From contig NC_090334.1 of NCBI RefSeq assembly GCF_035084215.1, positions 55,924,001 to 55,988,000 of the forward strand: a DNA stretch of 64,000 nt, read 5' to 3'. This DNA is from Heptranchias perlo (lineage: Eukaryota). Below, piece by piece: positions 9,511 through 59,998 of this stretch (its first letter is position 1; each line of letters begins with the position of its first letter). The notes beneath the pieces are model-generated. The model did not search any database, was not told the DNA's origin, and saw nothing but the letters and a program-made list of their open reading frames with translations. The position numbers were made by a program, and so were the translations under genes.

Positions 9511-10722
9511 ATGGGGGACGCAGTGGATTTATTGGAGGAGGCACATCACCATCCACAGCAGGTACGGCATGCAGTTCTGGGAGTTGCAGCTCCACAAGAC
9601 AGTGGTACGTCACAAGGATCTGCAGAAGAGCAGAGGGGAGACCAACGGAGGGACCGACGTCGCAGGAGGCACTACCCTCGTGAGAGGGTCTACAGACAGA
9701 GGCTGAGCTTCCTGGACCTCCCTGAGGAGCAGTGCCTATGAAGGCTCAGATTGAGTCACCAGATGGTCACAGACATCTGCACACTCCTTCATGCAGAGCT
9801 GCTCCCGAATGGGCCTGGTGGGCGCGCATTGCCCATCTCAGTTAAAGTCACCATTGCCCTCAATTTCTTTGCCTCTGGATCCTTCCAGGGCGCCACTGGC
9901 AACATCACCAGGATCTCTCAGTCGTCTGCCCATAAGTGTATATGACAGGTCACAGATGGCTTGTTTGCCAGGGCATCCGATTACATCAAGTTCCCTTGAG
10001 ATGGCGTCAGCCAGACTGAGAGGGCAGTGGGTTTCAATTCTCTCGCTGGCTTCCCATGGGCGCAGGATGCAACTGATTGCTCACACGTAGCAATCAGAGG
10101 ACCTGCACGTGAGCCAGAACTGTTCATCAACCGAAAGGGATATCCTTCCATCCATGCACAGCTGCTTTGCCACCACCAGAAGAGATTTCTGCAGGTCTGT
10201 GCCAAATTCCCTGGCAGCTGCCATGATTCCTTCATTTTGCACGAGTCCAACATCCCAGCCCTCTTCCATGGACAAGACAGACTTAAGGGCTGGCTGCTTG
10301 GAGACAAGGGATACCCCCTGGAGATGTGGCCCATGACACCTGTGAGAAACCCCACCAACGAGGCACAGCAACAGTACAACGACAGTCACATCGCCACCAG
10401 GTCTGTCATTGATTCAACCATTGGAATGCTCAAGATGCGCTTCAGGTGCCTGGATCGATCTGGGGGATCCCTTCAGTACTCACCAATGAGGGTGTGTAGA
10501 ATAACAGTTGTGTGTTGCGTCCTGCACAACATCGTTTAGCGGAGAGAATTACAGGTGGAAGAGCTCCCATGCGCCCATGAAGCATCTGCATCCGCCATCA
10601 ACATTGAAGAAGATGAGGAGGAGCAGGAGGAGGAGGACGGTAGGCAACTCATCGGCAGAGCAGCGGCACACTTGGCTGCTCGTGATGCCAGGGAGTCACT
10701 CATATCTGATAGATTCTCATAA
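9511..10722 (+). pseudogene. Harbinger DDE transposase (HARBI1-like family), 4 in-frame stops, no frameshift
   Basis: ORFs 9511, 9751 and 10027 share one frame: KVTIALNFFASGSFQ, DCSHV, NRKGYPS, PGSCHDSFIL, GWLLGDKGYP, GMLKMRFRCLD, CCVLHN; final TAA at 10720-10722. Confidence 0.92.
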
Positions 10723-13439: not shown

Positions 13440-13665
13440 ATCACAGGAGCCAAACAAAGTGCACTTCCATTCACTGATGCAGCTGTGGAACTGGTTCTTC
13501 AGAAAGTGGGCAAAAGGAGGGTTGCTTTGTTCGACACTGCTGGGCACCCTGTCCGTGGGGAGCAGTGCAGATTGTTCAGGAGGAAGTGGTGAAAAGGGTG
13601 AATGCCGTGTCCAACACAAACAGAACCTGGATGCAGATGAGTGAGAATGTTGATGGTGTTGAGAT
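13440..13665 (+). pseudogene. Degenerate Harbinger Myb/SANT exon
   Basis: LPFTDAAVELVLQKVGKRRVALF and EEVVKRVNAVSNTNRTWMQ across frameshifts; ends where the 30-bp array begins. Confidence 0.65.
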
Positions 13666-14918
13666 AAGGCTACCCAGCATAAGATATGCTGAGGTAAGGC
13701 TACCCAGCATAAGATATGCTGAGGTAAGGCTACCCAGCATAAGATATGTTGAGGTAAGGCTACCCAGCATAAGATATGCTGAGGTAAGGCTACCCAGCAT
13801 AAGATATGCTGAGGTAAGGCTACCCAGCATAAGATATGTTGAGGTAAGGCTACCCAGCATAAGATATGCTGAGGTAAGGCTACCCAGCATAAGATATGTT
13901 GAGGTAAGGCTACCCAGCATAAGATATGTTGAGATAAGGCTACCCAGCATAAGATATGTTGAGGTAAGGCTACCCAGCATAAGGTATGTTGAGATAAGGC
14001 TACCCAGCATAAGGTATGTTGAGGTAAGGCTACCCAGAATAAGATATGTTGAGGTAAGGCTACCCAGCATAAGATATGTTGAGGTAAGGCTACCCAGCAT
14101 AAGGTATGTTGAGATAAGGCTACCCAGCATAAGATATGTTGAGGTAAGGCTACCCAGCATAAGATAATTGTAAACAATTTTACAACACCAACTTGGTGTT
14201 GTAAAATTGTTTACAATTGTCAACCCCAGTCCATCACCGGCATCTCCACATCAGCATAAGATATGTTGAGGTAAGGCTACCCAGCATAAGATATGTTGAG
14301 GTAAGGCTACCCAGCATAAGATATGTTGAGGTAAGGTTACCCAGCATAAGATATGTTGAGGTAAGGCTACCCAGCATAAGGTTTGTTGAGGTAAGGTTAC
14401 CCAGCGTAAGGTTTGTTGAGGTAAGGGTACCCAGCATAAGATATGTTGAGGTAAGGTTACCCAGCATAAGGTTTGTTGAAGTAAGGGTACCCAGCATAAG
14501 GTTTGTTGAAGTAAGGGTACCCAGCATAAGGTTTGTTGAAGTAAGGGTACCCAGCATAAGGTTTGTTGAAGTAAGGGTACCCAGCATAAGATATGTTGAG
14601 GTAAGGTTACCCAGCATAAGGTTTGTTGAAGTAAGGGTACCCAGCATAAGGTTTGTTGAAGTAAGGGTACCCAGCATAAGGTTTGTTGAGGTAAGGGTAC
14701 CCAGCATAAGGTTTGTTGAAGTAAGGGTACCCAGCATAAGGTTTGTTGAAGTAAGGGTACCCAGCATAAGGTTTGTTGAGGTAAGGGTACCCAGCATAAG
14801 GTTTGTTGAAGTAAGGGTACCCAGCATAAGGTTTGTTGAGGTAAGGTTACCCAGCATAAGGTTTGTTGAGGTAAGGTTACCCAGCATAAGGTTTGTTGAA
14901 GTAAGGTTACCCAGCATA
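13658..14918. repeat. 30-bp minisatellite (GTTGAGGTAAGGCTACCCAGCATAAGATAT) in two blocks, ~17 and ~22 copies
   Basis: Direct 30-nt periodicity at 13658-14165 and 14252-14918; the two blocks carry different variants. Confidence 0.97.
14166..14251 (+). mobile_element. Very short Penelope-like insertion with inverted 5' end
   Basis: Perfect 26-bp inverted repeat (14166-14191 and 14193-14218), then GTCAACCCCAGTCCATCACCGGCATCTCCACAT; CAGCATAAGAT duplicated at 14155-14165 and 14252-14262. Family call is from recall of shark Penelope ends. Confidence 0.65.
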
Positions 14919-15461
14919 AAACAACTGCTGCAGTCAATGGGCATTATAACCTCTTACTTGAGAGATAATTCAGTTTTTGCTGGTCACTGTTGGTCAATTC
15001 ACCATCAGCCACGCTAAAGTACCATGGGAGGAGCTGTTCCACATATACTGCAGTTATACTGCATGTTCGGTATTGGTCTCAGTAGTGGGGACTTCTGCTC
15101 AACAGCTGCACATATTAGGAAATTGCGGGCGTGTGTTCAGAAAATTCCATTCAGTTTGTCTTTGAGTAGAGTTCAATACCTGTGCCTTTTATTCATTGAT
15201 CGAATTGCATGATTCTGTCTTTAAGAGTCAGTTATAAATTATGTTCCCGCGCAGAGCTTCACGCGCCAGGACAGCATACTGGAAATTCAAGCAAGCTGAT
15301 CAGCATACCCCACATGGTTTCCAACCCACTGTAAAGGAGTGGCAGGCTACGTACTGTGTGCTCCTGGTGTGTAAAGCTCGGCACTGAAAGCACTAATTCC
15401 TAAAAACTACTCTCACATAACTTCTACTCATTGAGATGATTCCAGTTATCGATTATTCTAT

Positions 15462-24279: not shown

Positions 24280-27200
24280 TACTAAGACAGGAAGGAGCTG
24301 TACCGTTGGGACGGGCTCCACCTGAACTGAAATGGAACCAGCGTCCTAGCAGAAAGGATAAATAGGACTGTGGATAGGACTTTAAACTAGTAAGAAGTGG
24401 GGAGGGATCTGGGAATATAAAATAAGCCTGAACAAAAAAGAAATAGGAAATGACAGTAAAGGTTCGACCAAGATAAGGAATAAGGGTGACATAAACAGTC
24501 AGAGAACAGATACAGTTATAGAACATAAGTATAAAATGATGGTTAAAAATAAAGTGAGAAGAACAGTTGATATAAACAAATAAATTGCCTGTATGGCAAT
24601 GTGCACAGCATCAGGAACAAAACCGGGGAATTGGAGGTAATAATTTGTAGCGAAGAGCCAGATGTAGTAGGGATAACTGAAACATGGCTACATAAAGAAC
24701 AGGACTTGCAGTTAAATATTGCAGAATATAATGTATTTAGAAAGGATAGAGAAGGAAGAGGGGTGGGGGTAGCTGTACTAATTAGAGATAACATAATGGC
24801 AGTAGAAAAAAGGGACATAATTCATAGAATCATAGAAATTTGCAGCATAGAAGGAGGCCATTCAACCTATTGTGTCTGCTAAAGATAGAAACAGAATCCA
24901 TATGGATTGAGATAAAGGATAAGAAGGGATCGATCACGTTAACAGGTTTATTCTACAGGCTACTTAATAATGGAAGGGAAGTGGATGAAGAAATATGTAA
25001 GCAAATCTATATAATGAGTAAAAGACATCAAGTAATAATCATGGGAGATTTCAAATACCCCCAAATAAACTGGAAAGAAGAGGTAGGGAAAGGGGAAAAG
25101 GGAATGGAGTTTTTACAGTGTGTTCAGGAGTCCTTTCTTATCCAGTAAGCAAAACAAGAGTGGGATCACTGCTGGATCTAGTAATGGGAAATGAACCAGT
25201 GCAGATAAGAGAAGTAAGCATAAGGGAACACCTAGGCAATAGTGATCATAACATAATAAGGTTTAAAACAACGATTTGGAAAGACATAAGTAAAACAAAG
25301 ACCAAAGTAATAGATTGGAGAAAAGTTAATTTGAGGGAATGCGAAAGGAACTAGGGAAGGTAAACTGGAAAAAAATGTTGAGAGATAAAAAGATAGAACA
25401 GCAGTGGGAAATATTTAAAATGGTGATCAATAGATTTCAGAAGAAATATATTGCATTAGAACATAAGCACAAACTAGCCAATAATGAAACACCATGGATG
25501 AATAAAGAGGTAAGGGTAAAATTGAAACAAAAAAAAAGCATACACTAAGTATATAGACAATAAAGGAGAGGATGACAAAAGGAAATACAAAGAGGTTAGG
25601 AAAGAAGTCAAAAATATTTAGGAAGGAAAAGAGGAACTACAAAATTTAAATTATCAACGAATATAAAAAGAAATAGTAAAATATTCTACAGACACATAAA
25701 TAACAAAAGAAAAATCAGGATAGGGATAAGGCCACTAAGGGATGCACAAGATAAACTCACAAGTAATGACAGTGAAATGGCAGAAATATTGAATAGTTAC
25801 TTTGCCCTCAGTATTTACCAGGGAGACTAACAAAGTGGATAAGATATTAGAAGAAGAGATCAAAAAAAAATAAAGACATTTTGGAAAGGAGGGAAATAAT
25901 TAATAAACTAATCAAACTTAGAGAGGATAAAACCCCTGGTCCGGATGGATTGCATCCGCTCATATTAAAAGAAGTTAGGGAAGAGATAGCAGAGGCACTA
26001 TTACAAATATATAAAAATTCATTCGAAAAGGGAATAGTGCCACAGGACTGGCGGACAGCAGTGAGAAATATTTAAAATGGTGATCAATAGATTTCAGAAG
26101 AAATATATTGCATTAGAAAATAATTCCTATATTTAAAAAGGGAGATAGAATACGTCCAGGGAACTATAGACCAGTTAGCTTAACGTCGGTGGTAGGAGAG
26201 ATAATGGAATCTTTACTCAAAGGTATAATAGAAAAACGTCTAGAAACCAAAAATATAATAAAGAGCAGTCAGCACGGATTTGAAAAAGGGAAGGTCATGC
26301 TTGACCAACCTTATTGAATTCTTTGAAGAAGCAACAGAAAGGGTAGATAAGGGTAATGTTGTAGATGTAATATATTTGGATTTTCAAAAGGCCTTCAATA
26401 AGGTATGGCATCATCGACTCATGACTAAGGTCAGAGCATGTGGAGTCAGGGGACAAGTAGCAGAATGGATAGCAAGCTAGCTACAAAGCAGAAAACAGAG
26501 AGTAGGGATTAAGGGTAGCTACTCAGACTGGCAAAAGATGGGAAGTGGTGTTCCACAAGGATCGAGCTGTGACCATTGTTGTTCACAGTTTACAGTAATG
26601 ATTTGGACTCGGGAATTGGAAGTACAATTTCAAAATTTGCAGACGACATCAAATTCGGGGGTATAGTTCATACAAAGGAAGAATGTGACAAAGTACAAGA
26701 AGACATTAATGAACTTGCATAATGGGCGTGTAATTGGAAAATTAATTTCAATATAGGTAAGTGTGAGGTGGTGCATTTTGGTAGGAAGAATAAGGAGGCC
26801 ACAGATTGCTTGGATAATAAAAGTCTAAATGGGGTAGAGGAGCACAGGGATCTCGGGGTGCAGATATACAAATCATTAAAAGTAACAACACAGGTTAATA
26901 AGGCTATAAAAAGGCAAACCAAGCACTGGGGTTCAATTCTAGAGGGATAGAATTGAAAAGTAGACAAGTTATGTTAAACTTGTATAGAACCTTGGTTAGA
27001 CCACACTTGGAGTATTGTGCACAGTTCTGGTCTCCATATTCTAAAAAGGATTTAGAGGCATTAGAGAAAGTGCAAAACAGATTCACAAGGATGATATGAG
27101 AACTGAGAGGATATACTTATCAGGAAAGGCTGAACAAACCGGGACTCTTTTCTCTAGAAAAGAGAAGGCTGAGGGGTGACCTGATAGAGGTCTTTAAGAT

Positions 27201-27558
27201 AATGAAAGGGTTTGATGTAGAGAAAATGTTTCCATTTGTGGGAGAGTCCAAAACTATAGGTCATAAATCTAAGATAGTCACTAATAAATCAATAGGGAAT
27301 TCAGGAAAAACTTCTTTACCCAAAGAGCAGTAAGAATGTGGAACTCGCTACCACAAGGAGTAGTTGAGGTAAATAGTATAGATGCATTTAAGGGGAAGCT
27401 AGATAAGTACATGAGGGAGAAAGGAATAGAAGGGTATCCTGATAGGGTTAGATGAAGAAAGATGGGAGGTGGCTCATTTGAAGCATAAATGCTGGCATAC
27501 ACCAGTTGGGCCGACTGGCCTGTTTCGGTGCTGGAGACTCTATATAACTCTGTATAAT
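24280..27558 (+). mobile_element. CR1 LINE (AT-rich subfamily): ORF1 end, whole disrupted ORF2, 3' UTR
   Basis: YRWDGLHLN (esterase end); APE motifs VVGITETW, IMGDFKYP, LGNSDHN; RT motifs DKTPGPDGLHP, GRSCLTNL, YLDFQKAF. Contains a short antisense CR1 tail at ~24822-24879. Confidence 0.93.
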
Positions 27559-28892: not shown

Positions 28893-30158
28893 CATGAAAT
28901 CGTGTTTGACAAATTTATTAGTGTTTTTGAAGATGTAACTAGCAGGGTAGATAAAGGGGAACCAATGGATGTAGTATATTTGGATTTTGAAAAGGCATTT
29001 GATAAGGTACCACATAAAAGGTTGTTACACAACATAAGGGCTCATGGGGTTGGGGGTAATGTATTAGCACGGATACAGGATTGGTTAATGGGTGGAAAAC
29101 AGAGAGTAGGGATAAATGGGTCATTTTCAGGTTGGCAGGCTGTAACTAGTGGGGTACCACAAGGATCGGTGCTTGGGCCTCAGCTATTTACAATCTATAT
29201 TAATGACTTAGATGAAGGGACAAGTGTAATGTATCCAGGTTTGCTGACGATGCAAAGTTAGGTGGGAAAGTTAGCTGTGAGGAGGACACGAAGAGTCTGC
29301 AAAGGAATATAGTCAAGTTAAGTGAGTGGGCAAGAAGGTGGCAGATGGAGTATAATGTGGGGAAATGTGAGGTTATTCACTTTGTTAGGAAGAGTAGAAA
29401 CACAGAATATTTTTTAAATGGTGAGAAACTATTAAATGTAGGTGTTCAGAAAGACTTGGGTGTCCTCGTACAAGAAACACAAAAAGTTAGCAAGCAATTA
29501 GGAAAGCAAATGGCATTTTGGCCTTTATGGCAAGGGGTTGGTGTACAAGAGTAAGGCAGTCTTACTACAGTTGTACAGGGCTTTGGTGAGACCTCACCGG
29601 GAGTACTGCATACAGTTTTGGTCTCCTTATCTAAGGAAGGATATACTTGCCTTAGAGACGGTGCAATGAAGGTTCACTAGATTAATTCCTGGGATGAGGG
29701 TTGTCCTATGAGGAGAGATTGAGTAGAATGGGCCTATACTCTATGGAGTTTAGAAGAATGAGAGGTGATCTCATTGAAACATATCAGATTCTTTGGGGGC
29801 TTGACAGGGTAGATGCTGAGAGGTTGTTTCCCCTGGCTGGAGAGCCTAGAACTAGGGGGCATAGTCTCAGGATAAGGGGTCAGCCATTTAAGACTGAGAT
29901 GAGGAGGAATTTCTTCACTCAGAGGGTTGTGAATCTTTGGAATTCTCTACCCCAGGAACTGTGGATGCTGAGTCATTGAGTATATTCAAGGCTGAGATCG
30001 ATAGATTTTTGGACTCTAGGGGAATCAAGGGATATGGGTAATCGGGCAGGAAAGTGGAGTTGAGGTCAAAGTTCAGCCATGATCCGATTGAATAGCAAAG
30101 CAGGCTCGAGGGGCTGTGTGGCCTATTCCTGCTCCTATTTCTTACGTTCTTATGTTCT
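28893..30158 (+). mobile_element. CR1 LINE, 5'-truncated RT plus 3' UTR
   Basis: [32 protein letters not shown]; TTCTTATG-like tail. Confidence 0.93.
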
Positions 30159-33055: not shown

Positions 33056-35384
33056 CTGGTTGAAATAACTAGGAAGTTAGGAATGTTTTTGTTCATTGTG
33101 TAAGCATGGAAAAAGCTTTGGTTGCTGTGTGTAACAAAATCAAAGTACAGTTAAAAATCAAATAATCACACAACCTCTTGTGTTAAAGCACAACAAAGGA
33201 GGGAAATTGCTTTGCTTCACAGTATGTCATAAATATCTTTTTCAAGATGTGAATACTTAATTCCTTTATTCTCATCAAGCTACTTGTTTTCCTCCACATG
33301 CACAATTATTTGATATTGTTTGAGGGAATCATTACCTTGTCCTATGTTATTTAGAAATTACATCATTATCAGCAAAAAATACACTTCTATAAGCTTTGAA
33401 AATAAAGCATTTCAAAAGAAAATCCTTTGAGATCAGGTTGTTGCCAACAAATTCTGTGATGGGTACTAGTGCTGTTTGGCACTTTATCTGTTTATTGTTT
33501 ACGAGTCAGCAGCCTTGTCCAATTCGCTCACCACAACTGTAACTAATTGGATCATTTGCAGTAGCGTTTCAAATAGTACATGTCATGAGATATCTTAAGG
33601 TAATTGCTTGGACTGAACTTCAGATCTATTGTCATGATCGACAGTAGGCTTCCTAACATCCATCAGCTCGGTCAATGCTTCACTATGTCACAGCCCTTCT
33701 TTCATTTCAACAATGGACAATGTCCCAACTGCTGTCTACATCAACCACATACCTCAAAACACTGCAAAGATTTTAGGATCCAATTACCGTTTGTTATAGC
33801 ATTAGACAATTGTATTGCAATACATCCATTACCTAATTAACAACAAATGCAAATTATTTAGCACACAACAGAAATACAATTAATGGGCATTTATCTCAAG
33901 ATTGCTAGTGATGAGTCCACCTTCAAAATGACATTATTGCATCCTTGCTCAATTGAAACTAGCATAACTTGCTCAATGTTTCCTTTTGCTGGCATGTGGA
34001 CCCATTACTAGAGGTCCAATTATTTTAAATGTTTGGTCCCAATGTGCTTTATTTATTTTAATAATTTGAATTATTCCTAAGCTGATATACTTCATTCTGT
34101 TAAATGGGCTAAATGTTGTCGTATTTGGTTCATTTTCACCACATTTCTTTAGCCATTAACAAACAAAACTAATTCATTTTAATGACTCTAAACCCTTCCA
34201 AGGCAGTTATGTAAAATGGTACCTTTCTCTAAAATATGCTTCCAAAGACAGAAATTCCACCTGCTGGGGATAGAATCGTGGAAAAGTTGTGGTCGGGATT
34301 TGCAATTGATGCAAAAGCTCGATTTAGTTTCTGCCCCATTTAAACTGCAGAGGAAATCCCAATCGGAGGAGATGGTGCACTTCTTCTGCCACCCTTTTAT
34401 TTCTCTAGCCATCACTTTAGGGGCACTTCTGGGGCCATTCCCAGGATACCCCTAGAATTGTGCCAGAAGCACCATCAGGCCCAGAGAGACCCATGTCCGC
34501 TGAGAATAGGTGTAGGTCCTGTTCTGAGCACAGGAAAGGCCCCAACAATGCACAAGACTCCCTCAGGGGAAATAATAAAAAATATTAACAGTTTCTTTAG
34601 CTCTTCTGGTTCACCTTCTTGGAGCAACTCCCATTATTTAAATGATCCTGTCACCAGGATTTGGAATGGGTCAACAGAAGGTGAAAGTGGCTGGCAGAAA
34701 TTCCACCCTGCAACTTCTGTACTACGGCATTGCTCCCCTCAAATGTTCTAACAATTGATGTAAATAGTTTCTTCCCTAAAGCTTTACTGCATGAATTAAG
34801 GTGTCAGTTATGGCAATAGCGATGTAGATCACTGTGCTGTGTCAGACTGTATGATACTGAGGACAGCTCAATGGTGATAGTAAGCTACATCAGTTCTTTC
34901 ATAAGTATAAAATTGGAAAGGAGGAGTGAATGAGTTATTACTGTGGCCTTCTGCATGAGTAGCTGAAACTCGCTGTTACTGGTGAGATGTTCTCTTTAGC
35001 AGGTGCCTCCTGTAATACATGGTGGAGAACTGAACACTACCACTGCCATTATTGCACATGCTGCAAAACCAGATCTTACCTAGTGAATTAACAGAAAGAA
35101 AGTGGCTTTGAACTCACAAATAAGGAGTCAACTTGATGTACATCAATAAATAAGGTGAACAAAGCTATTATGGAGAGTGGAGCATGCATTTCTGAGCATT
35201 AGTGGTTAAGTGCAGCAAAACAGGGAAAACTATTAGTAACTTTTTAAAAAGTGAATATTTGCTGAACTATTTTTCATGGAGCAGAGTAACACTATCATGG
35301 GTGACATAACTTTTCTAATCAATTTTTACATATATGTAATAATGCCTCTGTTATCTCTTCTCTAACTTCTTTTAATGTGTGCAG

Positions 35385-38060
35385 GTGCAATCCATCTGGA
35401 CCAAAAGTTTTATCCTCTCCAAGTTTGATTGATTTATCAATTATCTCCCCCCTTTCCATCTTATCTTTTTTGATCTCTTCTAGAGATCTCTAACAGAGGC
35501 ATTATTACATCTTCTGCTAAAGTCATGCTCATCAAGTTAGTCTCTCTGCTAAATACTGAGGCAAAGTAATTATTTAATATTCCTGCCATTTTGCTGTCAT
35601 TACCTATGAGTTTATTCTGCATATCCCTTAGTGGCCCTATCCCTATCCTGACTTTTCTTTCATTGTTTATGTACCTGTAGAATGCTTTACTATTTCTTTT
35701 TATATTCCTTGATAATTTAATTTCATAGTTTCTCTTTGCCTTCCTAATTGTTTTTCAACTTTTTTCCTAACCTTTTCATATTCCCTTTTGTCATCCTCTC
35801 CTTTGTTGTCTATGTACTTAGTGTATGCCTTTTTCTTTAGTTTCAATTTTGTCCTTATTTCTTTATTAATTCATGGTGTATCATTACTGGCTAGTTTGTT
35901 CTTGCTTTTTAGTGGGATATATTTCTTCTGGACTCTATTGATCACCATTTTAAATGTTTCCCACTGCTGTTCTATTTCTTTGTTTATCAGTAATTTTTTT
36001 CAGTTTATATTCCCTAGTTCCATTCTCATCCTATAAAATTATACTTTTTTCCAATGTATTACTTTGGTCTTTGCCTTACTTATGTCCTTCTCAATTTATG
36101 TCTTAAACCTTATTATGTTGTGATCGCTATTGCCTTGATGTTTCCCACACTTACTTCTCTTATCTATTCTGGTTCATTTCCCATTACTAGATCCAGCAGT
36201 GCTTCCTCTCTTGTTGGTTTTTTTTATATACTGGGTAAGAAAGGAATCCTGCACACACTGTAAAATCTCCATTCCCTGTACCCCTTTACCTATCTCTTCT
36301 TGTCAGTTTATTTGGGGATATTTAAAATCTCCCATGAATATTATTCCGTGTCCTTTATTCATTTCAGATATTTGCTTAAATATTTTGTCCTCCACCTCCT
36401 TTCCACTATTAGGTGGTCGTAGTATACCCCTATTAACGTGATCAATTCCTTCTTTGCTTTTATTTCAATCCATATGGATTCTGTTTCTATCCTTCTGTTA
36501 GTTATGTCCCTTCTTTCTACTGCCATTATGTTATCTCTAATTAGTACAGCTACTCCACCCGCCTTCTTATTTCCCTATCCTTTCTGATAATGTTATAACT
36601 TACAATATTTGGTTGCCAGTCCTGTTCTCCATGTACGCATGTTTCAGTTATTCCTACTACATCTGGTTCCTCGCTACGATTATTGCCTCCAGTTCCCCCA
36701 TTTTATTTTGGACACTGTGTACATTGCTGTACAGGCAGTTTAATTCATCTTTAATAGTTGTTCCTTTTACTTTATTTTAAACAGTCCTTTTATACTTCTG
36801 TTTGATAACTGTACTTGTTCCTTGACCATTTATGTTATCTTTATTCCTTACCCTGGTCTGACCTATATACTGATCTTCTGTTTTTTTTATCTTTAACTTT
36901 TTGCTATTGCTACCAGATCCCTCCCCCCATCTTGCTAGTATAAAGCCTTATGCACCGCCCTATTTATCCTTTCCGCTCGGACTCTGGTCCCATTCCGGCT
37001 CAGGTGGAGCCCGTCCCGGTGGTACAGCTCCTCCCTGTCCTAGTACTGGTGCTAGTGTCCCATGAAATGGAACCCCACCTTCCCACACCACTCTTTTAGA
37101 CATGCATTCACCTTTCTGATCTGCCTATCCCTATACCAATTAGCATGTGGCTCTGGTAGTGAACATGAGATTACCACCCGTGAGCTCCTGCTTTTTAATT
37201 TAGTTCCTAGCTTCTGATATTCCCTTAGCAGGACCTCCTCCTTGTTCTTCATTACATCATTGGTGCCGACATGGACCACGACAACTGGATCCTTCCCCTC
37301 CCTTTACAAGTTCCTCACCAGTTGCTCCGAGATGTCCTTTGCCTTTGCACCAGCTAGACAACACATCCTCCTGGACTCTCGATCGCGACTGCAGAGGACG
37401 CTATCTATCCCCGATTATAGAATCCCCTATGACACAACCTTTCCATTCTGATCCTTCCCCTTTGGACTGCCTTTTGCTCCACGGTGCCATGGTTAGCATT
37501 CTGGGCATCCTCCTTGCAGCCTTCATCCTTCAACAGGTATCAAGCATCTCATACCTGTTGGATAGGACCAGTGTCTGTGGGACCTCCTTCTCTACCTCCA
37601 CCTCCCTTATATATGTCAGAGTGTCTCTAACTCGCACTCCAGGTCAAAGACTCTGAGCCGGAATGTCTGAGGCCAGAGACATTTACTACAGATATGGCAA
37701 TCTGTGACAATCTCGCTGTCCACAAACTCCCACATATTACAGTCCCGACACACAGCCTATACTGCCATTTCTAGTTTTAATTTATTTAATCAGTAATTTA
37801 TTTCTAGGACTAATAGAATCACTTGAGATCTAGATTATATTTAGTAAGTAGATTTAGCTTGATTTCAAAATAATTAGTAACTAAGTCTTTTAAAAATTTT
37901 TAAGTATTTTTTTTAAGTTTTAAAAGCTTTAAAAGTTGCTAGATTAATTTATAGCCTCCTGTTTTAATTCGCTTAGCACCTCCTTCCCCCTCTGCACCTA
38001 CTCACACTCACCAAATTCCCAGTCGAAAGTCCTCACTCTGTTAGCAATTCACTCCGTTAG
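35385..38060 (-). mobile_element. CR1 LINE 5' half (5' UTR, ORF1, APE), with RT and 3' end missing
   Basis: ORF1 start ~37768 with C-x2-C...C-x2-C motif; VHVGTND esterase block; APE region; breaks at DKTFGPDGLH; same subfamily as 24280-27558. Confidence 0.88.
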
Positions 38061-49449: not shown

Positions 49450-51905
49450 ATGGCATAGAAATTCAATTGCACCTGGAAATGAGCGCGCTAGGGGAGGGGT
49501 GTGAGAGCACTTCATGCACCTGTTCCCATGGCTGCAGGGATCACATGAAATTAGTGCTGCCAGCTCATTATAACGAGTCAAGTGTGCAGCCTACGCTACC
49601 TGTGCTTTGGGCCAGAAACCCCCAGAGGCAACACCTCTATTGCTAGTGGGAAGAGGTTGTAGCGGAGGTTAATGCCAGGAGCTTAGCTCCCAGGACATGG
49701 CTGCATTGCAGGAAAAAGATCAATGACCTCACCAGTGTTGTCGAGGTAAGAATCTTACCTCTCAACTCAATTATTCTCTCTTCATGCCTCCACCACCTCC
49801 AGCCACACTATTCACAATACTCCCGTTCCCCTCTTCCCTTCACTCTTTTGCAATCACTGCACCACACTTCACTCCACTTCCTTAGCCTCCTACTTACACA
49901 CACTGCACCTTCAACTTTAAAAAAAATTCGTTCATGGGATGTGGGCGTCGCTGGCGAGGCCGGCATTTATTGCCCATCCCTAATTGCCCTTGAGAAGGTG
50001 GTGGTGAGCCGCCTTCTTGAACTGCTGCAGTCCGTGTGGTGAAGGTTCTCCCACAGTGCTGTTAGAAAGGGAGTTCCAGGATTTTGACCCAGCGACGATG
50101 AAGGAATGGCGATATATTTCCAAGTCAGGATGATGTGTGACTTGGAACGGAAATGTGCGGGTGATGTTGTTCCCATGTGCCTGCTGCCCTTGTCCTTCTA
50201 GGTGGTAGAGGTCGCGGGTTTGGGAGGTGCTGTCGAAGAAGCCTTGGTGAGTTGCTGCAGTGCATCCTGTGGATGGTACACACTGCAGCCACTGTGTGCC
50301 GGTGGTGAAGGGAGTGAATGTTTAGGGTGGTGGATGGGGTGCCAATCAAGTGGGCTGCTTTATCCTGGATGGTGTCGAGCTTCTTGAGTGTTGTTGGAGC
50401 TGCACTCATCCAGGCAAGTGGAGAGTATTACATTATACTCCTGACTTGTGCCTTGTAGATGGTGGAAAGGCTTTGGGGAGCCAGGAGGTGAGTCACTCGC
50501 CGCAGAATACCCAGCCTCTGACCTGCTCTTGTAGCCACAGTATTTATATGGCTGGTCCAGTTAAGTTTCTGGTCAATGGTGACTGCCAGGATGTTGATGG
50601 TGGGGGATTCGGCGATGGTAATGCCGTTGAATGTTAAGGGGAGGTGGTTCAACTCTCTCTTGTTGGAGATGGTCATTGCCTGGCACTTGTCTGGCGCGAA
50701 TGTTACTTGCCACTTATGAGCCCAAGCCTGGATGTTGTCCAGGTCTTGCTGCATGCGGGCTCGGACTGCTTCATTGTCTGAGGGGTTGCGAATGGAACTG
50801 AACTATATGCAATCATCAGCGAACATCCCCATTTATGACCTTATGATGGAGGGAAGGTCATTGATGAAGCAGCTGAAGATGGTTGGGCCTAGGAGCTCCT
50901 GCAGCAATGTCCTGGGGCTGAGATGATTGGCCTCCAACAACCACTATCATCTTCCTTTGTGCTAGGTATGACTCCAGCCACTGGAGAGTTTTCCCCCTGA
51001 TTCCCATTGACTTCAATTTTACTAGGGCTCCTTGGTGCCACACTTGGTCAAATACTGCCTTGATGTCAAGGGCAGTCACTCTCACCTCTGGAATTCAGCT
51101 GTTTTGTCCATGTTTGGACCAAGGCTGTAATGAGGTCTGGAGCCGAGTGGTCCTGGCGGAACCCAAACTGAGCATTGGTGAGCAGGTTATTGGTGAGTAA
51201 GTGCTGCTTGATAGCACTGTTGACGACACCTTCCATCACTTTGCTGATGATTGAGAGTAGACTGATGGGGCAGTAATTGGCCGGATTGGATTTGTCCTGC
51301 TTTTTGCGGACAGGACATACCTGGCGAGGCCGGCATTTATTGCCCATCCCTAACTATCAACACTATTCCAACCCTCGCATCCCCACACCTCATGTGTTCC
51401 ACACAACCATGGCCATTCGACCATGACAGGAATATTCTCAAAACAATTCACAAGGATGTTGCTAATACACTCCCTTTGTTCTTGCAGGAGAAGGTCACTC
51501 ATAACTTGTGACGGGAGGCTGTGATCGGAGGAGGCTGAGCCCACCTGCACATGCTTTCCCCTCTGGCCATCATGGACAGGGGGAGAGTCATGGCCGTGCA
51601 AGTGTCAATGCTGGAGGAGACTCCCTGCAGGGTTTCTTCATACCTTATCCTCTTTTTCCCTTCTTGCTTCTTTCTCACCCTACACACTCTGCATGACAAA
51701 CTGCAGCTTCTTTCAGCAGCCACTCATCTCTCTCTGCTCTCCCTTCACACTAAAAGCTAACCCTTCTCCCTCTCTTTCATTTCAGGTGCTGAAAATGTTG
51801 ATGCCGCAGTGCCACTTCAGAAAGAAGAGGCCAGCTTTCCTGAGGATGCAACGCCACTTGATCTAACCCTAGCAATCACCAGCTCAGAGACTGGCACCAT
51901 GCGTA
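49450..51905 (+). mobile_element. Harbinger relic with three-exon Myb/SANT gene remnant
   Basis: WEEVVAEVNARSLAPRTWLHCRKKINDLTSVVE|GTAAG (donor 49746); acceptors TTGCAG|GAGAAG (51488) and TTTCAG|GTGCT (51786); last exon has PLDLTLAITSS. Confidence 0.75.
49920..51353 (-). mobile_element. CR1/L2-group LINE (distinct family), 5'-truncated, inside the Myb intron
   Basis: NPANYCPISLLSIISKVME, QFGFRQ, ALDIKAVFDQVWH, QQDLDNIQAWAHKW, YKAQVRS; tail near 49920; AACT on both flanks. Confidence 0.88.
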
Positions 51906-53104: not shown

Positions 53105-53366
53105 TTAGAAAATCTCAATGCAATCAGGCAGAGTCAACACGGCTTTGTGAAAGGAAAATCGTGTTTGACTAATTTATTAGAGTGCTTGTTACTTCCTCAA
53201 AGAAATGTAGATAAAGGCGATCCTGTGGATGTGGTGTACTTGGATTTCCAGAAGGCTTTTGACAAGGTGCCACATCAAAGGCTACTACACAAAATAAGAG
53301 CTCATAGTGTCGGGGGTAACATATTAGCATGGATAAAGGAATGGTTAACTAACAGGAAACAGAGAG
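53105..53366 (+). mobile_element. Older CR1, left part (continues at 58933-59998)
   Basis: [30 protein letters not shown]; continues as VGING after the insertion. Confidence 0.92.
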
Positions 53367-53394
53367 GGGTGATGGCTCACCAGGGGAAGGTGGC

Positions 53395-54718
53395 AGCGGC
53401 GGCGGACCTGGGCGGAACCAGAGGCGAGAGACCAGAGAGCGGGGATATAAAGAGCAGCGACCCGAGGCCCGAGACCTGAGCGGCGGCGGACCTGGGCGGA
53501 ACCAGAGGCGAGAGACCGGAGAGCGGGGATATAAAGAGCAGCGACCCGAGGCCCGAGACCTGAGCGGCGGCGGACCTGGGCGGAACCAGAGGCGAGAGAC
53601 CGGAGAGCGGGGATATAAAGAGCAGCGACCCAAGGCCCGAGACCTGAGCGGCGGCGGACCTGGGCAGAACCAGAGGCGAGAGACCGGAGAGCGGGAATAT
53701 AAAGAGCAGCGACCTGAGGCCCGAGACCTGAGCGGCGGCGGAACCAGAGGCGAGAGACCGGAGAGCGGGGATATAAAGAGCAGCGACCCAAGGCCCGAGA
53801 CCTGAGCGGCGGCGGACCTGGGCGGAACCAGAGGCGAGAGACCGGAGAGCGGGGATATAAAGAGCAGCGACCCAAGGCCCGAGACCTGAGCGGCGGCGGA
53901 CCTGGGCGGAACCAGAGGCGAGAGACCGGAGAGCGGGGATATAAAGAGCAGCGACCCAAGGCCCGAGACCTGAGCGGCGGCAGACCTGGGCGGAACCAGA
54001 GGCGAGAGACCGGAGAGCGGGAATATAAAGAGCAGCGACCCAAGGCCCGAGACCTGAGCGGCGGCAGACCTGGGCGGCACCAGAGGCGAGAGACCGGAGA
54101 GCGGGGATATAAAGAGCAGCGACCCGAGGCCCGAGACCTGAGCGGCGGCGGACCTGGGCGGAACCAGAGGCGAGAGACCGGAGAGCGGGGATATAAAGAG
54201 CAGCGACCCGAGGCCCGAGACCTGAACGGCGGCGGACCTGGGCGGAACCAGAGGCGAGAGACCGGAGAGCGGGGATATAAAGAGCAGCGACCCAAGGCCC
54301 GAGACCTGAGCGGCGGCGGACCTGGGCGGAACCAGAGGCGAGAGACCGGAGAGCGGGGATATAAAGAGCAGCGACCCGAGGCCCGAGACCTGAGCGGCGG
54401 CGGACCTGGGCGGAACCAGAGGCGAGAGACCGGAGAGCGGGGATATAAAGAGCAGTGACCCGAGGCCCGAGACCTGAGCGGCGGCGGACCTGGGCAGAAC
54501 CAGAGGCGAGAGACCGGAGAGCGGGAATATAAAGAGCAGCGACCTGAGGCCCGAGACCTGAGCGGCGGCGGACCTGGGCGGAACCAGAGGCGAGAGACCG
54601 GAGAGCGGGGATATAAAGAGCAGCGACCCAAGGCCCGAGACCTGAGCGGTGGCGGACCTGGGCGGAACCAGAGGCGAGAGACCGGAGAGCGGGGATATAA
54701 AGAGCAGCGACCCGAGGC
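53395..54718 (+). repeat. 16 x 84-bp GC-rich monomers forming the CR1 5' UTR
   Basis: Units start at 53395, 53479, 53563, 53647, 53731 (10-bp deletion), 53805 ... 54645; each has TATAAAG and most have GGGCGG. Confidence 0.95.
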
Positions 54719-54744
54719 TTGCTCTGAGACCAGCGGCAGAGTTC

Positions 54745-54820
54745 GGGGTGACGTCACCAGTCAGAAAGTGACGCGTCACAGGGGAGGCAGCTGATTGGTG
54801 AGTAGGTTCAGGTGAGTATT
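54745..54820 (+). promoter_or_regulatory. Putative CR1 internal regulatory block (CRE, inverted CCAAT, two splice donors)
   Basis: TGACGTCA at 54749-54756, ATTGG at 54794-54798, GTGAGT at 54798 and 54812. Motif matches only. Confidence 0.4.
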
Positions 54821-54977
54821 TCTACCATTTTACTGTAAGTAAAGTAATAAGAAAGGGAAGGTCTGCAGGTTTTATAGCAGGTAGTGTTTTGTTTTTTAGT
54901 GTACCTAGGTCCCTAGTATAGTGAACATTTTCTAATTTCAACGTAATTTAAAAGGGGTAACTAAGCTAAGGCAAGTC

Positions 54978-55928
54978 ATGGCAGCAGACCTCGCACCCGT
55001 GATATGCCCCTCCTGCAAGATGTGGGAAGTCATGGACACTACCAGTGTCCCTGCCGACCATGTGTGCAGGAAGTGTGTCCACCTGCAGCTACTGACCGAT
55101 CGTATCTCGGAGCTGGAGCTGCGGGTGGACTCACTGTGGAGCATCCGCGATGCAGAGAAACTCGTGGATAGCACGTTTAGCGAGTTGGTCACATCGCAGG
55201 TAAAGGGAGTACAGGCAGAAAGTGAATGGGTGACCACCAGGTAGAGTAAGAGGTGCAGGCAGGTAGTGCAGGGGTCCCCTGTGGCCATCCCCCTCTCAAA
55301 CAGGTATACCGTTTTGGATACTGTTGGGGGTGATGGCTCACCAGGGGAAGGTGGCAGCGGCCAGGTTCATGGCACCGTGGCTGGCTCTGCTGCACAGGAG
55401 GGCAGGAAAAACAGTGGCAGAGCTATAGTGATAGGGGACTCGATTGTAAGGGGAATAGACAGGCGTTTCTGCGGACTCAACCGAGACTCCAGGATGGTAT
55501 GTTGCCTCCCTGGTGCAAGGGTCAGGGATGTCTCGGAGTGGCTGCAGGACATTCTGGAGGGGGAGGGTGAACAGCCAGTTGTCGTGGTGCATATAGGTAC
55601 CAACGATATAGGTAAAAAACGGGATGAGGTCCTACAAGCTGAATTTAGGGAGTTAGGAGTTAAACTAAAAAGTAGGACCTCAAAGGTAGTAATATCAGGA
55701 TTGCTACCAGTGCCACAGGCTAGTCAGAGTAGGAATGACAGGATAGCTAGGATGAATACGTGGCTTGAGAGATGGTGCAAGAGGGAGGGATTCAAATTCC
55801 TGGGACATTGGAACCTGTTCTGTGGGAGGTGGGACCAGTACAAATTGGACGGTCTGCATCTGGGCAGGACTGGAACCAATGTCCTAGGGGGAGTGTTTGC
55901 TAGTGCTGTTGGGGAGGGTTTAAACTAA
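54978..55928 (+). pseudogene. CR1 ORF1 (zinc finger/leucine zipper plus SGNH esterase), one in-frame stop
   Basis: CPSC...CRKC, GDS, GTND, DGLH; ORFs 54978 and 55266 share a frame with TAG at 55242-55244. Confidence 0.92.
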
Positions 55929-55963
55929 AGTGGCAGGGGGATGGGAACCAATGCAGGAAGTCA

Positions 55964-58848
55964 GTGGGAAGTAAAGTGGTGACAGAAACAAAAGGCAGTA
56001 AGGGAGAGTGTACAAAACATGACCGGACAGATGGTCTGAGAAAGCAGGGCAAAGACCAAGGGAAGTCTAGATTAAACTGCATTTATTTCAATGCAAGAAG
56101 TCTGATGGGCAAGGCAGATGAACTCAGGGCATGGATGGGCACATGGGACTGGGATGTTATAGCTATTACTGAAACATGGCTTAGGGAGGGGCAGGACTGG
56201 CAGCTCAATGTTCGAGGGTACAGATGCTATAGGAAAGATAGAGCAGGAGGTAAGAGAGGAGGGGGAGTTGCGTTCTTGATTAGGGAGAACATCACGGCAG
56301 TAGTGAGAGAGGATATATCCGAGGGTTCGCCCACGGAGTCTATATGGGTAGAACTGAAAAATAAGAAGGGAGAGATCACGTTGATAGGATTGTACTACAG
56401 ACCCCCAAATAGTCAACGGGAAATTGAGGAGCAAATATGTAAGGAGATTACAGACAGCTGCAAGAAAAATAGGGTGGTAATAGTAGGGGACTTTAACTTT
56501 CCCAACATTGACTGGGACAGCCATAGCATTAGGGGCTTGGATGGGGAGAAATTTGTTGAGTGTATTCAGGAGGAATTTATCTTTCAGTATGTGGATGGCC
56601 CGACTAGAGAGGGGGCAAAACTTGACCTCCTCTTGGGAAATAAGGAAGGGCAGGTGACAGAAGTGTTAGTGAGGGATCACTTTGGGACCAGTGATCATAA
56701 TTCCATTAGTTTTAGGATAGCTATGGAGAATGATAGGTCTGGCCCAGAAGTTAAAATTCTAAATTGGGGAAAGGCCAATTTTGATGGTATTAGACAGGAA
56801 CTTTCAGAAGTTGATTGGGAGAGTCTGTTGGCAGGCAAAGGGACGTCTGGTAAGTGGGAGGCTTTCAAAAGTGTGTTAACCAGGGTTCAGGGTAAGCACA
56901 TTCCTTATAAAGTGAAGGGCAAGGCTAGTAGAAGTAGGGAACCTTGGATGACTCGGGTGAATGAGGCCCTAGTCAGAAAGAAGAAGGAGGCATATGACAT
57001 GCATAGGCAGCTGGGATCATAGAGATTGCCGGAGTAGAGTTAAGAGAGAAATCAGGAGGGCAAAAAGGGGATATGAGATTGCTTTGGCAGATAAGGCAAA
57101 GGTGAATCCAAAGAGCTTCTACAAATACATAAAGGGCAAAAGAGTAACTAGGGAGAGAGTAGGGCCACTTAAGGATCAACAAGGTCATCTATGTGCGGAA
57201 CCACTAGAGATGGGTGAGATCATAAATGACTATTTCGCATCGGTATTTACGATTGAGAAAGGCATGGATGTTAGGGAACTTGGGGAAATAAATAGTGATG
57301 TCTTGAGGAGTGTACATATTACAGAGAGGGAGGTGCTGGAAGTCTTAACGCGCATCAAGGTAGATAAATCTCCGGGACCTGATGAAATGTATCCCAGGAC
57401 GTTATGGGAGGTTAGGGAGGAAATTGCGGGTCCCCTAGCAGAGATATTTGAATCATCCACCGCTACAGGTGAGGTGCCTGAAGATTGGAGGGTAGCAAAT
57501 GTTGTGCCTTTGTTTAAGAAGGGCGGCAGGGAAAATCCTGGGAACTACAGACCGGTGAGCCTGACATCTGTAGTGGGTAAGTTGTTAGAGGGTATTCTGA
57601 GAGACAGGATCTACGGGCATTTGGAGAGGCAGGGACTGATTAGGAACAGTCAGCATGGTTTTGTGAGAGGAAAATCATGTCTCACGAATTTGATTGAGTT
57701 TTTTGAAGGGGTAACCAAGAAGATAGATGAGGGCTGTGCAGTAGACGTGGTCTACATGGACTTTAGCAAAGCCTTTGACAAGGTACCGCATGGTAGGTTG
57801 TTACATAAGGTTAAATCTCACGGGATCCAAGCTGAGGTAGCCAATTGGATAAAAAATTGGATTGACGGCAGAAGACAGAGGGTGGTTGTAGAGGGTTGTT
57901 TTTCAAACTGGAGGCCTGTGACCAGCGGTGTGCCTCAGGGATCGGTGCTGGGTCCGCTGTGATTTGTTATTTATATTAATGATTTGGATGAGAATTTAGG
58001 AGGCATGGTTAGTAAGTTTGCAGATGACACCAAGATTGGTGGCATTGTGGACAGTGAAGAAGGTTATCTAGGATTGCAACGGGATCTTGATAAATTGGGC
58101 CAGTGGGCCGATGAATGGCAGATGGAGTTTAATTTAGATAAATGTGAGGTGATGCATTTTGGTAGATCAAATCGGGCCAGGACCTACTCCGTTAATGGTA
58201 GGGCGTTGGGGAGAGTTATAGAACAAAGAGATCTAGGAGTACAGGTTCATAGCTCCTTGAAAATGGAGTCACAGGTGGATAGGGTGGTGAAGAAGGCATT
58301 CAGCATGCTTGGTTTCATTGGTCAGAACATTGAATACAGGAGTTGGGATGTCTTGTTGAAGTTGTACAAGACATTAGTTAGGCCACACTTGTGTACGGTT
58401 CTGGTCACCCTATGATAGAAAGGATATTATTAAACTAGAAAGAGTGCAGAAAAGATTTACTTGGATGCTACCGGGACTTGATGGTTTGACTTATAGGGCG
58501 AGGTTGGATAGACTGAGACTTTTTTCCCTGGAGAGTAGGAGGTTTAGGGGTGATCTTATAGAAGTCTATAAAATAATGAGGGGCATAGATAAGGTAGATA
58601 GTCAAAATCTTTTCCCAAAGGTAGGGGAGTCTATAACGCGGGGGCATAGATTTAAGGTGAGAGGGGAGAGATACAAAAGGGTCCAGAGGGGCAATTTTTT
58701 CACTCAAAGGGTGGTGAGTGTCTGGAACGAGCTGCCAGAGGCAGTAGTGGAGGCGGGTACAATTTTGTCTTTTAAAAAGCATTTGGACAGTTACATGGGT
58801 AAGATGGGTATAGAGGGATATGGGCCAAGTGCAGGCAATTGGGACTAG
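55964..58848 (+). pseudogene. CR1 ORF2 (APE endonuclease plus reverse transcriptase), two frameshifts and one stop
   Basis: ITETWL, GDFN, SDH; [19 protein letters not shown]; lesions at ~57020, 57960-57962 and ~58390. Confidence 0.95.
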
Positions 58849-58932
58849 CTTAGTGGTATAAACTGGGCGACATGGACATGTTGGGCCGAATGGCCTGTTT
58901 CCATGTTGTAACTTCTATGATTCTATGATTCT

Positions 58933-59998
58933 AGAGAGTAGGCATAAATGGGTCATTTTCAGGTTGGCAAGATGTAACGAGTGGAGTGCCACAGGGATCA
59001 GTGCTTGGGCCTCAACTATTTACAATCTATATCAATGACTTGGATGAAGGAACCGAATGTATGGTTGCTAAATTTGCTGATGACACAAAGGTAGGTAGAA
59101 AAGTAAGTTGTGAAGAGGACATAAGGAGTCTGCAAAGGGATACAGATAGGTTAAGTGAGTGGGCAAAAATTTGGCAGATGGAGTATAATGTGGGAAAATG
59201 TGAACTTGTCTACTTTGGCAGGAGGAATAGAAAAGCAGTATATTATTTCAATGGCGAGAGATTGCAGAACTCTGAGGTACAGAGGGATCTGGGTGTCCTA
59301 GTACATGAATCAAAAAGTTAGTATTAATGTACAGCAAGTGATTAGGAAGGCAAATGGAATGTTGTCATTTATTGCAAGGGGAATGGAATATAAAAGTAGA
59401 GATGTTTTGCTACAGTTGTGCAGGGCATTGGTGAGACCACATCTAGAATACTGTGTGCAGTTTTGGTCTCCTTATTTAAGAAAGGACAAATTTGCTTTGG
59501 AGGCAGTACAGAGAAGGTTCACTGATTCCTGGGATGAGGGGGTTATCTTATGAGGAAAGGTTGGACAAGTTGGGCCTGTATACATTGGAGTTTAGAAGAA
59601 TGAGAGGTGATCTCATTGAAACATATAAGATCCTGAGGGGACTAGAAGGGGTAGATGCTGAGGGGATGTTTCCCCTTGTGGGAAAGACTAGAACTAGGGG
59701 CCACAGTTTAAAAATAAGGAGTCTCCCATTTAAGACGGAGATGAGGAGAAATTTTTTCTCGGAGGGTCGTGAGTCTGTGGCACTCCCTTCCCCAGAGAGC
59801 GGTGGAGGCAGGGTCATTGAATATTTTGAAGGCTGAGTTAGATAGATTCCTGATTAACAAGGGAGTCAAAGGTTATAGTAGGTGGATGAGAAAGTAGGGT
59901 TGAGGTCACAATCAGATCAGCCATGATCTTATCAAATGGCAGAGCAGGCTCGAGGGGTCAAATGGCCTACTCCTGCTCTTAATTTGTATGTTCGTATG
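58933..59998 (+). mobile_element. Older CR1, right part with 3' UTR
   Basis: [28 protein letters not shown], tail. Confidence 0.92.

Follow-up and report, generated by a model that had tools for sequence, protein, structure and literature searches.

LINEs must carry a promoter in their own RNA, and the LINE promoters described so far, in the excerpts of the literature cited here, are internal and TATA-less (papers marked "excerpt" are cited from part of their text). The locus studied here raises the question of how a LINE whose 5′ region is a tandem array of short units, each with a TATA-like box, would initiate transcription, and whether the box places the start of the RNA. To answer it, we consider the element, its array, the junction at its 5′ end and its relatives in sequencing-run contigs. 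All coordinates are those of the 64,000-nt stretch of DNA that was analysed (the window).

The element is a CR1-type LINE insertion that forms one unit, from 53361 to 58938. It sits in the reverse transcriptase (RT) of an older CR1, and the older RT frame resumes on the far side of the insertion. ORF2 encodes an AP endonuclease and an RT, ORF1 is of the esterase type and matches PDB 4c1b (ORF1-encoded protein; E 8e-29), and the short 3′ UTR contains a hairpin and an 8-bp tail, with no poly(A). The tail is of the ATTCTRTG type, which we take to be the CR1 3′ end motif. An esterase ORF1 occurs in some L2 elements too and is not diagnostic for CR1 alone (PMC13343379, excerpt). In combination, the esterase ORF1 and the 8-bp tail place the element outside the L1 clade. 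ORF1 has an in-frame stop at codon 89 and the ORF2 reading frame is split into four pieces. Judged by its coding parts and its ends, the element is a near-full-length CR1 LINE that is inactivated by now (Table 1). Its host is probably a cartilaginous fish.

Table 1 Features of the CR1 insertion and of its 5′ region, in window coordinates
Feature	Position	Strand	Remarks
Target-site duplication, left copy AGAGAG	53361..53366	+	Hexamer repeated at 58933-58938
Templated 5′ addition, 35 nt	53366..53400	+	Exact copy of own ORF1 55327-55361
Array of 16 monomers	53395..54718	+	TRF: period 84, 15.9 copies, 95% matches
First TATA-like box TATAAAGA	53446..53453	+	Unit positions 52-59; repeated in 16/16 units
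Predicted start dinucleotide TG	53477..53478	+	Putative +1 at 32 nt from first T
Unique tether, 259 nt	54719..54977	+	Between array and ORF1
CRE TGACGTCA	54749	+	Tether
Palindrome TGACGCGTCA, CRE-like	54769	+	Tether
Reverse CCAAT	54794		Tether
Two GGTGAGT donor-like motifs	54797 and 54811	+	Tether
Pyrimidine/AG acceptor-like sites	near 54870-54920	+	Tether
ORF1	54978..55928	+	N-terminal CxxC...CxxC and SGNH esterase; PF13472 E 2e-13
ORF2	55904..58848	+	AP endonuclease and reverse transcriptase: PF03372, PF14529, PF00078
Short 3′ UTR	58849..58932	+	Hairpin (z -2.6) and ATTCTATG-type 8-bp tail repeats
Target-site duplication, right copy AGAGAG	58933..58938	+	Inside older CR1 RT

The window contains other repeats as well. 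Older CR1-like copies, some of them nested, lie at 3050–4964, 24535–27437, 28902–29961, 35331–37411 and 53105–59876, and L2-like RT fragments lie at 7538–7950 and 50440–51320; the clade labels of both groups are impressions. An ORF at 10000–10539 resembles what is presumably a fragment of a Harbinger/HARBI1-type transposase. Two tandem arrays, at 13657–14919 (42 copies of 30 bp) and 1614–1907 (15.5 copies of 19 bp), are unconnected with the CR1 element.

A first-pass annotation had described the 5′ UTR of the element as 16 monomers of 84 bp. The array is present, with TATAAAG in 16 of 16 units (the first at 53446) and GGGCGG in 13, and 15 units lie on the 84-nt register, but unit 5 (53731) is 74 nt long, 10 nt short of the others. 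Unit 16 departs from the consensus after 74 nt, where it enters the tether. The array is located upstream of ORF1 as described, but a unique tether intervenes, and the array makes up only part of the 5′ UTR. The 84-nt unit is 69% GC and CpG-rich, contains only four T and has no ATG. Over the whole array, the GC content is 67.5% and the CpG observed/expected ratio is 1.0, compared with about 0.4 in the ORFs. Long ORFs that span the array were discarded as a by-product of the repetition. No further copies of the monomer are found elsewhere in the window, and no Rfam matches are found within 53300–55000.

Chance accounts for the GC box of the unit but not for its TATA-like word. When the unit is shuffled 20,000 times, TATAAA appears in 0.095% (mononucleotide) and 0.065% (dinucleotide) of the shuffles, compared with 28% and 21% for the GC box; the 16 units count here as one observation, not 16. 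TATAWAWR is the TATA-box consensus, and TATAAAGA agrees with it at seven of eight positions, the mismatch being at position 7. The invariance of the box across the 16 units was considered as a sign of constraint and rejected, because CpG transitions make up seven of the ten distinct substitutions that the units show and the box contains no CpG.

The geometry of the box would fit a TATA-dependent promoter. Functional TATA boxes are mostly located at −29 to −32 relative to a pyrimidine–purine (YR) start, and −33 and −34 are allowed (PMC1779604, excerpt). The first-pass annotation had noted that 53479, the first base of the second unit, is 33 nt past the first T of the box at 53446. This spacing agrees with the published range, and a YR step is present at 32 nt. 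In particular, the TG at +32 is the only YR between +28 and +34 in the unit, recurs in each unit and is positioned one base upstream of the unit boundary. It supplies a putative YR start within the 29–34 nt that are typical of a TATA-dependent Pol II core promoter.

In the first-pass annotation, the TATA register was to predict the 5′ end of the element. The insertion had been taken to start at 53395 with the first monomer, which is incorrect: a 35-nt copy of ORF1 separates the target-site duplication from unit 1. The identity of 53366–53400 with 55327–55361 is 35/35 (E 1e-11 within the window). The copy shares 1 nt with the target-site duplication and 6 nt with unit 1 (AGCGGC microhomology). 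The first monomer-derived base lies between +33 and +39 of the TATA register. The insertion lacks the predicted +1 G. The claim that the 5′ end is in register with the box does not stand as worded: the interval begins at +33, but the junction is a chimeric template-switch junction with a 6-nt ambiguity, and n=1. The chance that such a junction touches +28 to +34 is 7/84 to 13/84 (0.08–0.15) for this one case. A match of at least 6 nt somewhere in the unique part of the element is available to 48 of the 84 registers.

The segment 53366–53400 illustrates plainly how re-priming can mark the 5′ junction of a CR1. Extra 5′ nucleotides are present in about 40% of genomic ZfL2-2 copies and have been attributed to template jumps (PMC2666801, excerpt). 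The 35-nt piece is of the same ordinary kind as the extra 5′ nucleotides and microhomologies of ZfL2-2 and L1 (PMC2666801, PMC2912911, excerpts), except that it derives from the element's own ORF1. It is plausible that priming began internally in ORF1 and aborted, and that the strand then re-annealed at the end of the cDNA or close to it, in which case the junction would mark the RNA start approximately. Back-splicing was rejected as the origin of the piece, the ORF1 side of the junction having no following GT.

To determine whether the array belongs to a family of copies, we turn to contigs of sequencing runs. Twenty of the 22 listed runs contain part of the window, all as contigs, and none of them is on record as RNA, which says nothing on expression; contigs show neither starts nor strand. 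Contigs of four of the 22 runs were placed on 54590–55930, a stretch with about 1.5 units. X1 is from organism A (DNA by guess), X6 from organism A (RNA by guess), X5 from organism B and X14 from organism E. Organism A has 0.72 of the window's words and may not be the window's own species. The summed word depth of the contigs is a rough measure, not a copy number.

In X1, the summed depths in the three monomer bins are 26,606, 59,606 and 35,372; the depth is 48,796 at 54630, in the monomer, and 1,774 at the array–tether junction (54719). The first five of the eight long X1 contigs listed have depths of 28, 43, 34, 272 and 61. As orders of magnitude, these values would put organism A at between hundreds and about 1,700 monomers, with tens of copies of this junction. 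In X5, the depth is 238 in the monomer, 74 at the array–tether junction and 169 in the tether. In X6, the monomer is present and one contig jumps back 84 nt. Monomer and tether junction are multi-copy in X1 and X5, and the array is not merely a local satellite; it was a local satellite expansion that the first-pass annotation had named as fatal to its proposal. A monomeric 5′ UTR is very likely a feature of the subfamily.

Sixteen units are nevertheless atypical. The ratio of monomer to tether depth is 0.4 in X1 (1.4 in X5), and 1.5% of the X1 tether depth passes through the array–tether junction in the form seen here. Because the monomer depth is low relative to the tether and little X1 depth crosses the junction, most tether-bearing copies have no such monomer or have one that is less than 85% alike. 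Variant units occur as well: the start of the TATA is replaced in one X1 contig (depth 35), and 6 extra nucleotides lie between the TATA and the next unit in one X1 contig (depth 20). In X14, the three monomer bins are empty and the tether has next to no depth, and ORF1 is deeply covered. The L1 5′ UTR turns over faster than the ORFs (PMC5381506, excerpt); by analogy, the presence of ORF1 relatives and absence of monomers in X14 would fit such a fast turnover.

The contigs also bear on the 5′ ends of other copies. No 5′ end in the array is among the 24 of 1,465 loose ends listed, none of the 15 of 129 joints and 40 of 327 variant rows listed is informative for such ends, and no pile-up where many molecules begin is listed for the four runs. 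The depth of X6 rises from 4.6 (54590–54634) to 858 (54635–54679), which was rejected as a start: the segment is duplicated in the stretch, and the depth is that of contigs from one study. A pattern scan of metagenomes returned three loci, each matching only 20–21 nt and attributable to chance. As relatives of ORF1, 0 of 7 viral_contigs candidates and 0 of 125 genome_contigs candidates were confirmed.

The first-pass annotation had proposed that the array is replenished by expansion, and signs of this are seen in the variants. G70A is carried by 7 of the 16 units (P about 1e-4 across sites, assuming independence), and three variants are common to units 4 and 14. In other contigs, G70A accounts for at most 213 of the depth of 48,796 in X1 (about 0.4%; 35 contigs) and for 0 of 238 in X5. 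Its high frequency here and its rarity elsewhere indicate that a unit was mutated by CpG decay in methylated DNA and later multiplied at the DNA level, either at the locus or in a very small sub-lineage. At the time of insertion, the array probably had fewer than 16 units. The pattern supports replenishment by unequal exchange; for the long arrays of mouse L1, unequal crossing-over has been proposed (PMC6454616, excerpt).

The tether carries candidate promoter and splicing motifs. The CRE and the double donor each appear in 0.1% of 3,000 shuffles, for motifs that were picked post hoc. No upstream ATG is present in the tether (1.7 expected; P 0.14, not significant). The hexamer AGCGGC occurs again at 54732, at +36 from the last TATA, which is a second, partly independent coincidence; alternatively, the duplication may simply have arisen through this microhomology. 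The donor-like motifs would imply an RNA that starts upstream of 54797. One X6 contig exits the element at 54815, beside a GT, into 255 unrelated letters, and is possibly a spliced chimeric host transcript led by the CR1 leader, as judged from this one contig of a run that is RNA by guess. The 30 letters listed past the exit hold an ATG frame, MALAGIRV, which to our mind recalls the start of vertebrate AMACR. A donor-to-acceptor joint inside the tether is absent from the 15 of 129 joints listed. An older, diverged near-full-length CR1 at 37768 (minus strand) has a donor-like motif that matches the GTGAGTAGGTTCAG region at 13 of 14 positions, about 250 nt upstream, and neither an array nor a GC box precedes its ORF1 within about 1.7 kb. 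The shared donor motif hints that a leader intron may be conserved across CR1 lineages.

Three other readings of the array have to be weighed. The array could be private to this locus, either as an assembly artefact or as a local satellite fused to a CR1. The largely private variant pattern would agree with this, as would the 35-nt chimeric joint, which is absent from the 15 of 129 joints listed for other contigs. However, the monomer and junction depths of X1 and X5 are far above single-contig levels, X6 contains the 84-nt jump-back joint, and a clean target-site duplication flanks the whole insertion. This origin is largely refuted, and we regard it as highly improbable. The array could also be a passive, minisatellite-like by-product of an 84-nt duplication between AGCGGC microhomologies, expanded in methylated DNA, with the tether (CRE, CRE-like palindrome and CCAAT) as the internal promoter and the register due to chance. 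The depth of the X1 tether, at least 2.5-fold that of the monomer, is in line with such a promoter, and so is the older CR1 with its donor motif and no array. In addition, the ORFs of this copy are broken and its array expanded locally after CpG decay, which shows that arrays can grow without selection. A passive array, however, leaves the TATA-like box at a canonical distance from the unit boundary unexplained, and in two organisms the unit is both homogeneous and present in many copies. We therefore consider a passive array with a tether promoter improbable.

The remaining reading keeps the monomers as promoters and dispenses with the box. The monomers would be additive CpG-island promoter or enhancer modules whose start is set without TBP–TATA contact, at a factor site or in a dispersed manner, and TATAAAG would be a relic of a captured host promoter. 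L1 regulatory regions are TATA-less, yet truncations and CAGE signals favor certain positions within their monomers (PMC7778262, PMC6454616, excerpts), and the CpG ratio of the array agrees with a CpG-island module. The incomplete match of TATAAAGA to the consensus and the TATA-altered unit of one X1 contig point in the same direction. On the other side are the rarity of TATAAA in the shuffles and the position of the lone YR of the canonical window, one base from the junction interval. A start without the TATA is unlikely in our judgement, though it is the strongest of the three competitors. It bears on the weak side of a TATA-placed start: mouse L1 monomers function without a TATA (PMC7778262, excerpt), and a monomer array can thus do without it. 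Likewise, the register comes from a single chimeric junction with a 6-nt ambiguity, and the CRE and CCAAT motifs of the tether could be the promoter.

Taken together, a mouse-L1-like monomer promoter on a CR1 is probable from the sequence. It is likely that the monomers contribute to transcription, and the case for a start placed at the next unit by the TATA is evenly poised. The best overall explanation, which we hold with as much doubt as belief, combines a bipartite 5′ UTR, a TATA-placed start, a relay from unit to unit and replenishment at the DNA level. The 5′ UTR of the subfamily would consist of a variable array of 84-nt CpG-rich monomers and a unique tether. Each monomer would act as a small Pol II promoter of the upstream type, and its TATA would place the start about 32 nt downstream, at the G directly preceding the next unit. 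The RNA would drop the firing unit and retain the units downstream, and the new copy would begin at a unit boundary, equipped with a promoter. Copies initiated from the last TATA would begin at the tether and retain no unit. The lost units would be offset in genomic DNA by unequal exchange or slippage, processes that could yield the shared variants. At the insertion at 53361, 35 nt copied from ORF1 would have re-annealed through AGCGGC at the cDNA end or near it.

A broader scenario is offered tentatively, its chances lying a little on the unfavorable side. The CR1 lineage may have internalised an upstream TATA promoter by tandem duplication, at least one unit being lost per retrotransposition and DNA-level expansion resetting the count. 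The relay would then be independent of that of mouse L1, the unit number would be a generation counter, and a spliced leader would drive host transcripts.

The tandem promoter units of mouse L1, to which the first-pass annotation appealed, are well established and survive truncation (PMC6454616, PMC7778262, excerpts). Mouse L1Md elements (A, Tf and Gf) have a bipartite 5′ UTR of CpG-rich tandem units in variable number and a tether (PMC6454616, PMC9022269, excerpts). The CR1 element has the same layout, with tandem CpG-rich units and a tether before ORF1, and units that are multi-copy and attached to the element. In L1Md, preferred 5′ positions match CAGE peaks and are read as parental start sites (PMC6454616, PMC7778262, excerpts). 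L1Md differs in belonging to the L1 clade, with units of about 200 bp that are TATA-less in these excerpts and broad starts near YY1/AP-1 sites, whereas the CR1 combines an esterase ORF1 with 84-bp units whose TATA-like box predicts a start at the unit boundary. The activity of L1Md monomers is proven, whereas the CR1 monomers are known here from sequence alone. The CR1 array and the mouse L1 monomers are, by the look of their parts, a convergent design.

Other systems share single aspects of the proposal. TRE5-A of Dictyostelium has a tandemly repeated A-module. This short 5′ module (200 bp) has promoter activity in a non-LTR element, like the unit proposed here (PMC3159450, excerpt); TRE5-A is of a different clade, and the excerpt does not mention a TATA. 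In Drosophila HeT-A and in Penelope, an upstream copy promotes the downstream unit, which offsets the loss of an upstream promoter (PMC1636488, PMC2377424, excerpts). Their unit is a whole element or a pseudo-LTR, and the Penelope promoter is TATA-less in the excerpt, whereas the CR1 unit is a small 5′ module. Vertebrate CR1-group elements likewise have repeat subunits near the 5′ UTR (PMC13343379, Fig. 4 legend, excerpt). Those elements are ORF1-less and have 1–5 units of 100–500 bp, compared with 16 copies of 84 bp and an ORF1 here, and "promoter", "TATA" and "monomer" have 0 matches in the main text of that paper as excerpted. 5′ repeat units of the CR1 group are thus already in print; neither a TATA-anchored relay nor a CR1 array of TATA-bearing monomers turned up in searches of the open literature, a scope that excludes Repbase/Dfam and the subscription-only work on the CR1 leaders of chicken and turtle.

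Should the array alone prove real, the locus is a modest addition, a mouse-L1-like 5′ UTR on an ORF1-bearing CR1. A TATA relay predicts that 5′ ends and CAGE peaks fall at one position modulo 84 and that at least one unit is lost per generation. If true, it would be a second, convergent solution to the need of LINEs for a promoter in their own RNA. This solution would be made out of a standard upstream promoter, and it would come from a superfamily in which transcription has been little studied.
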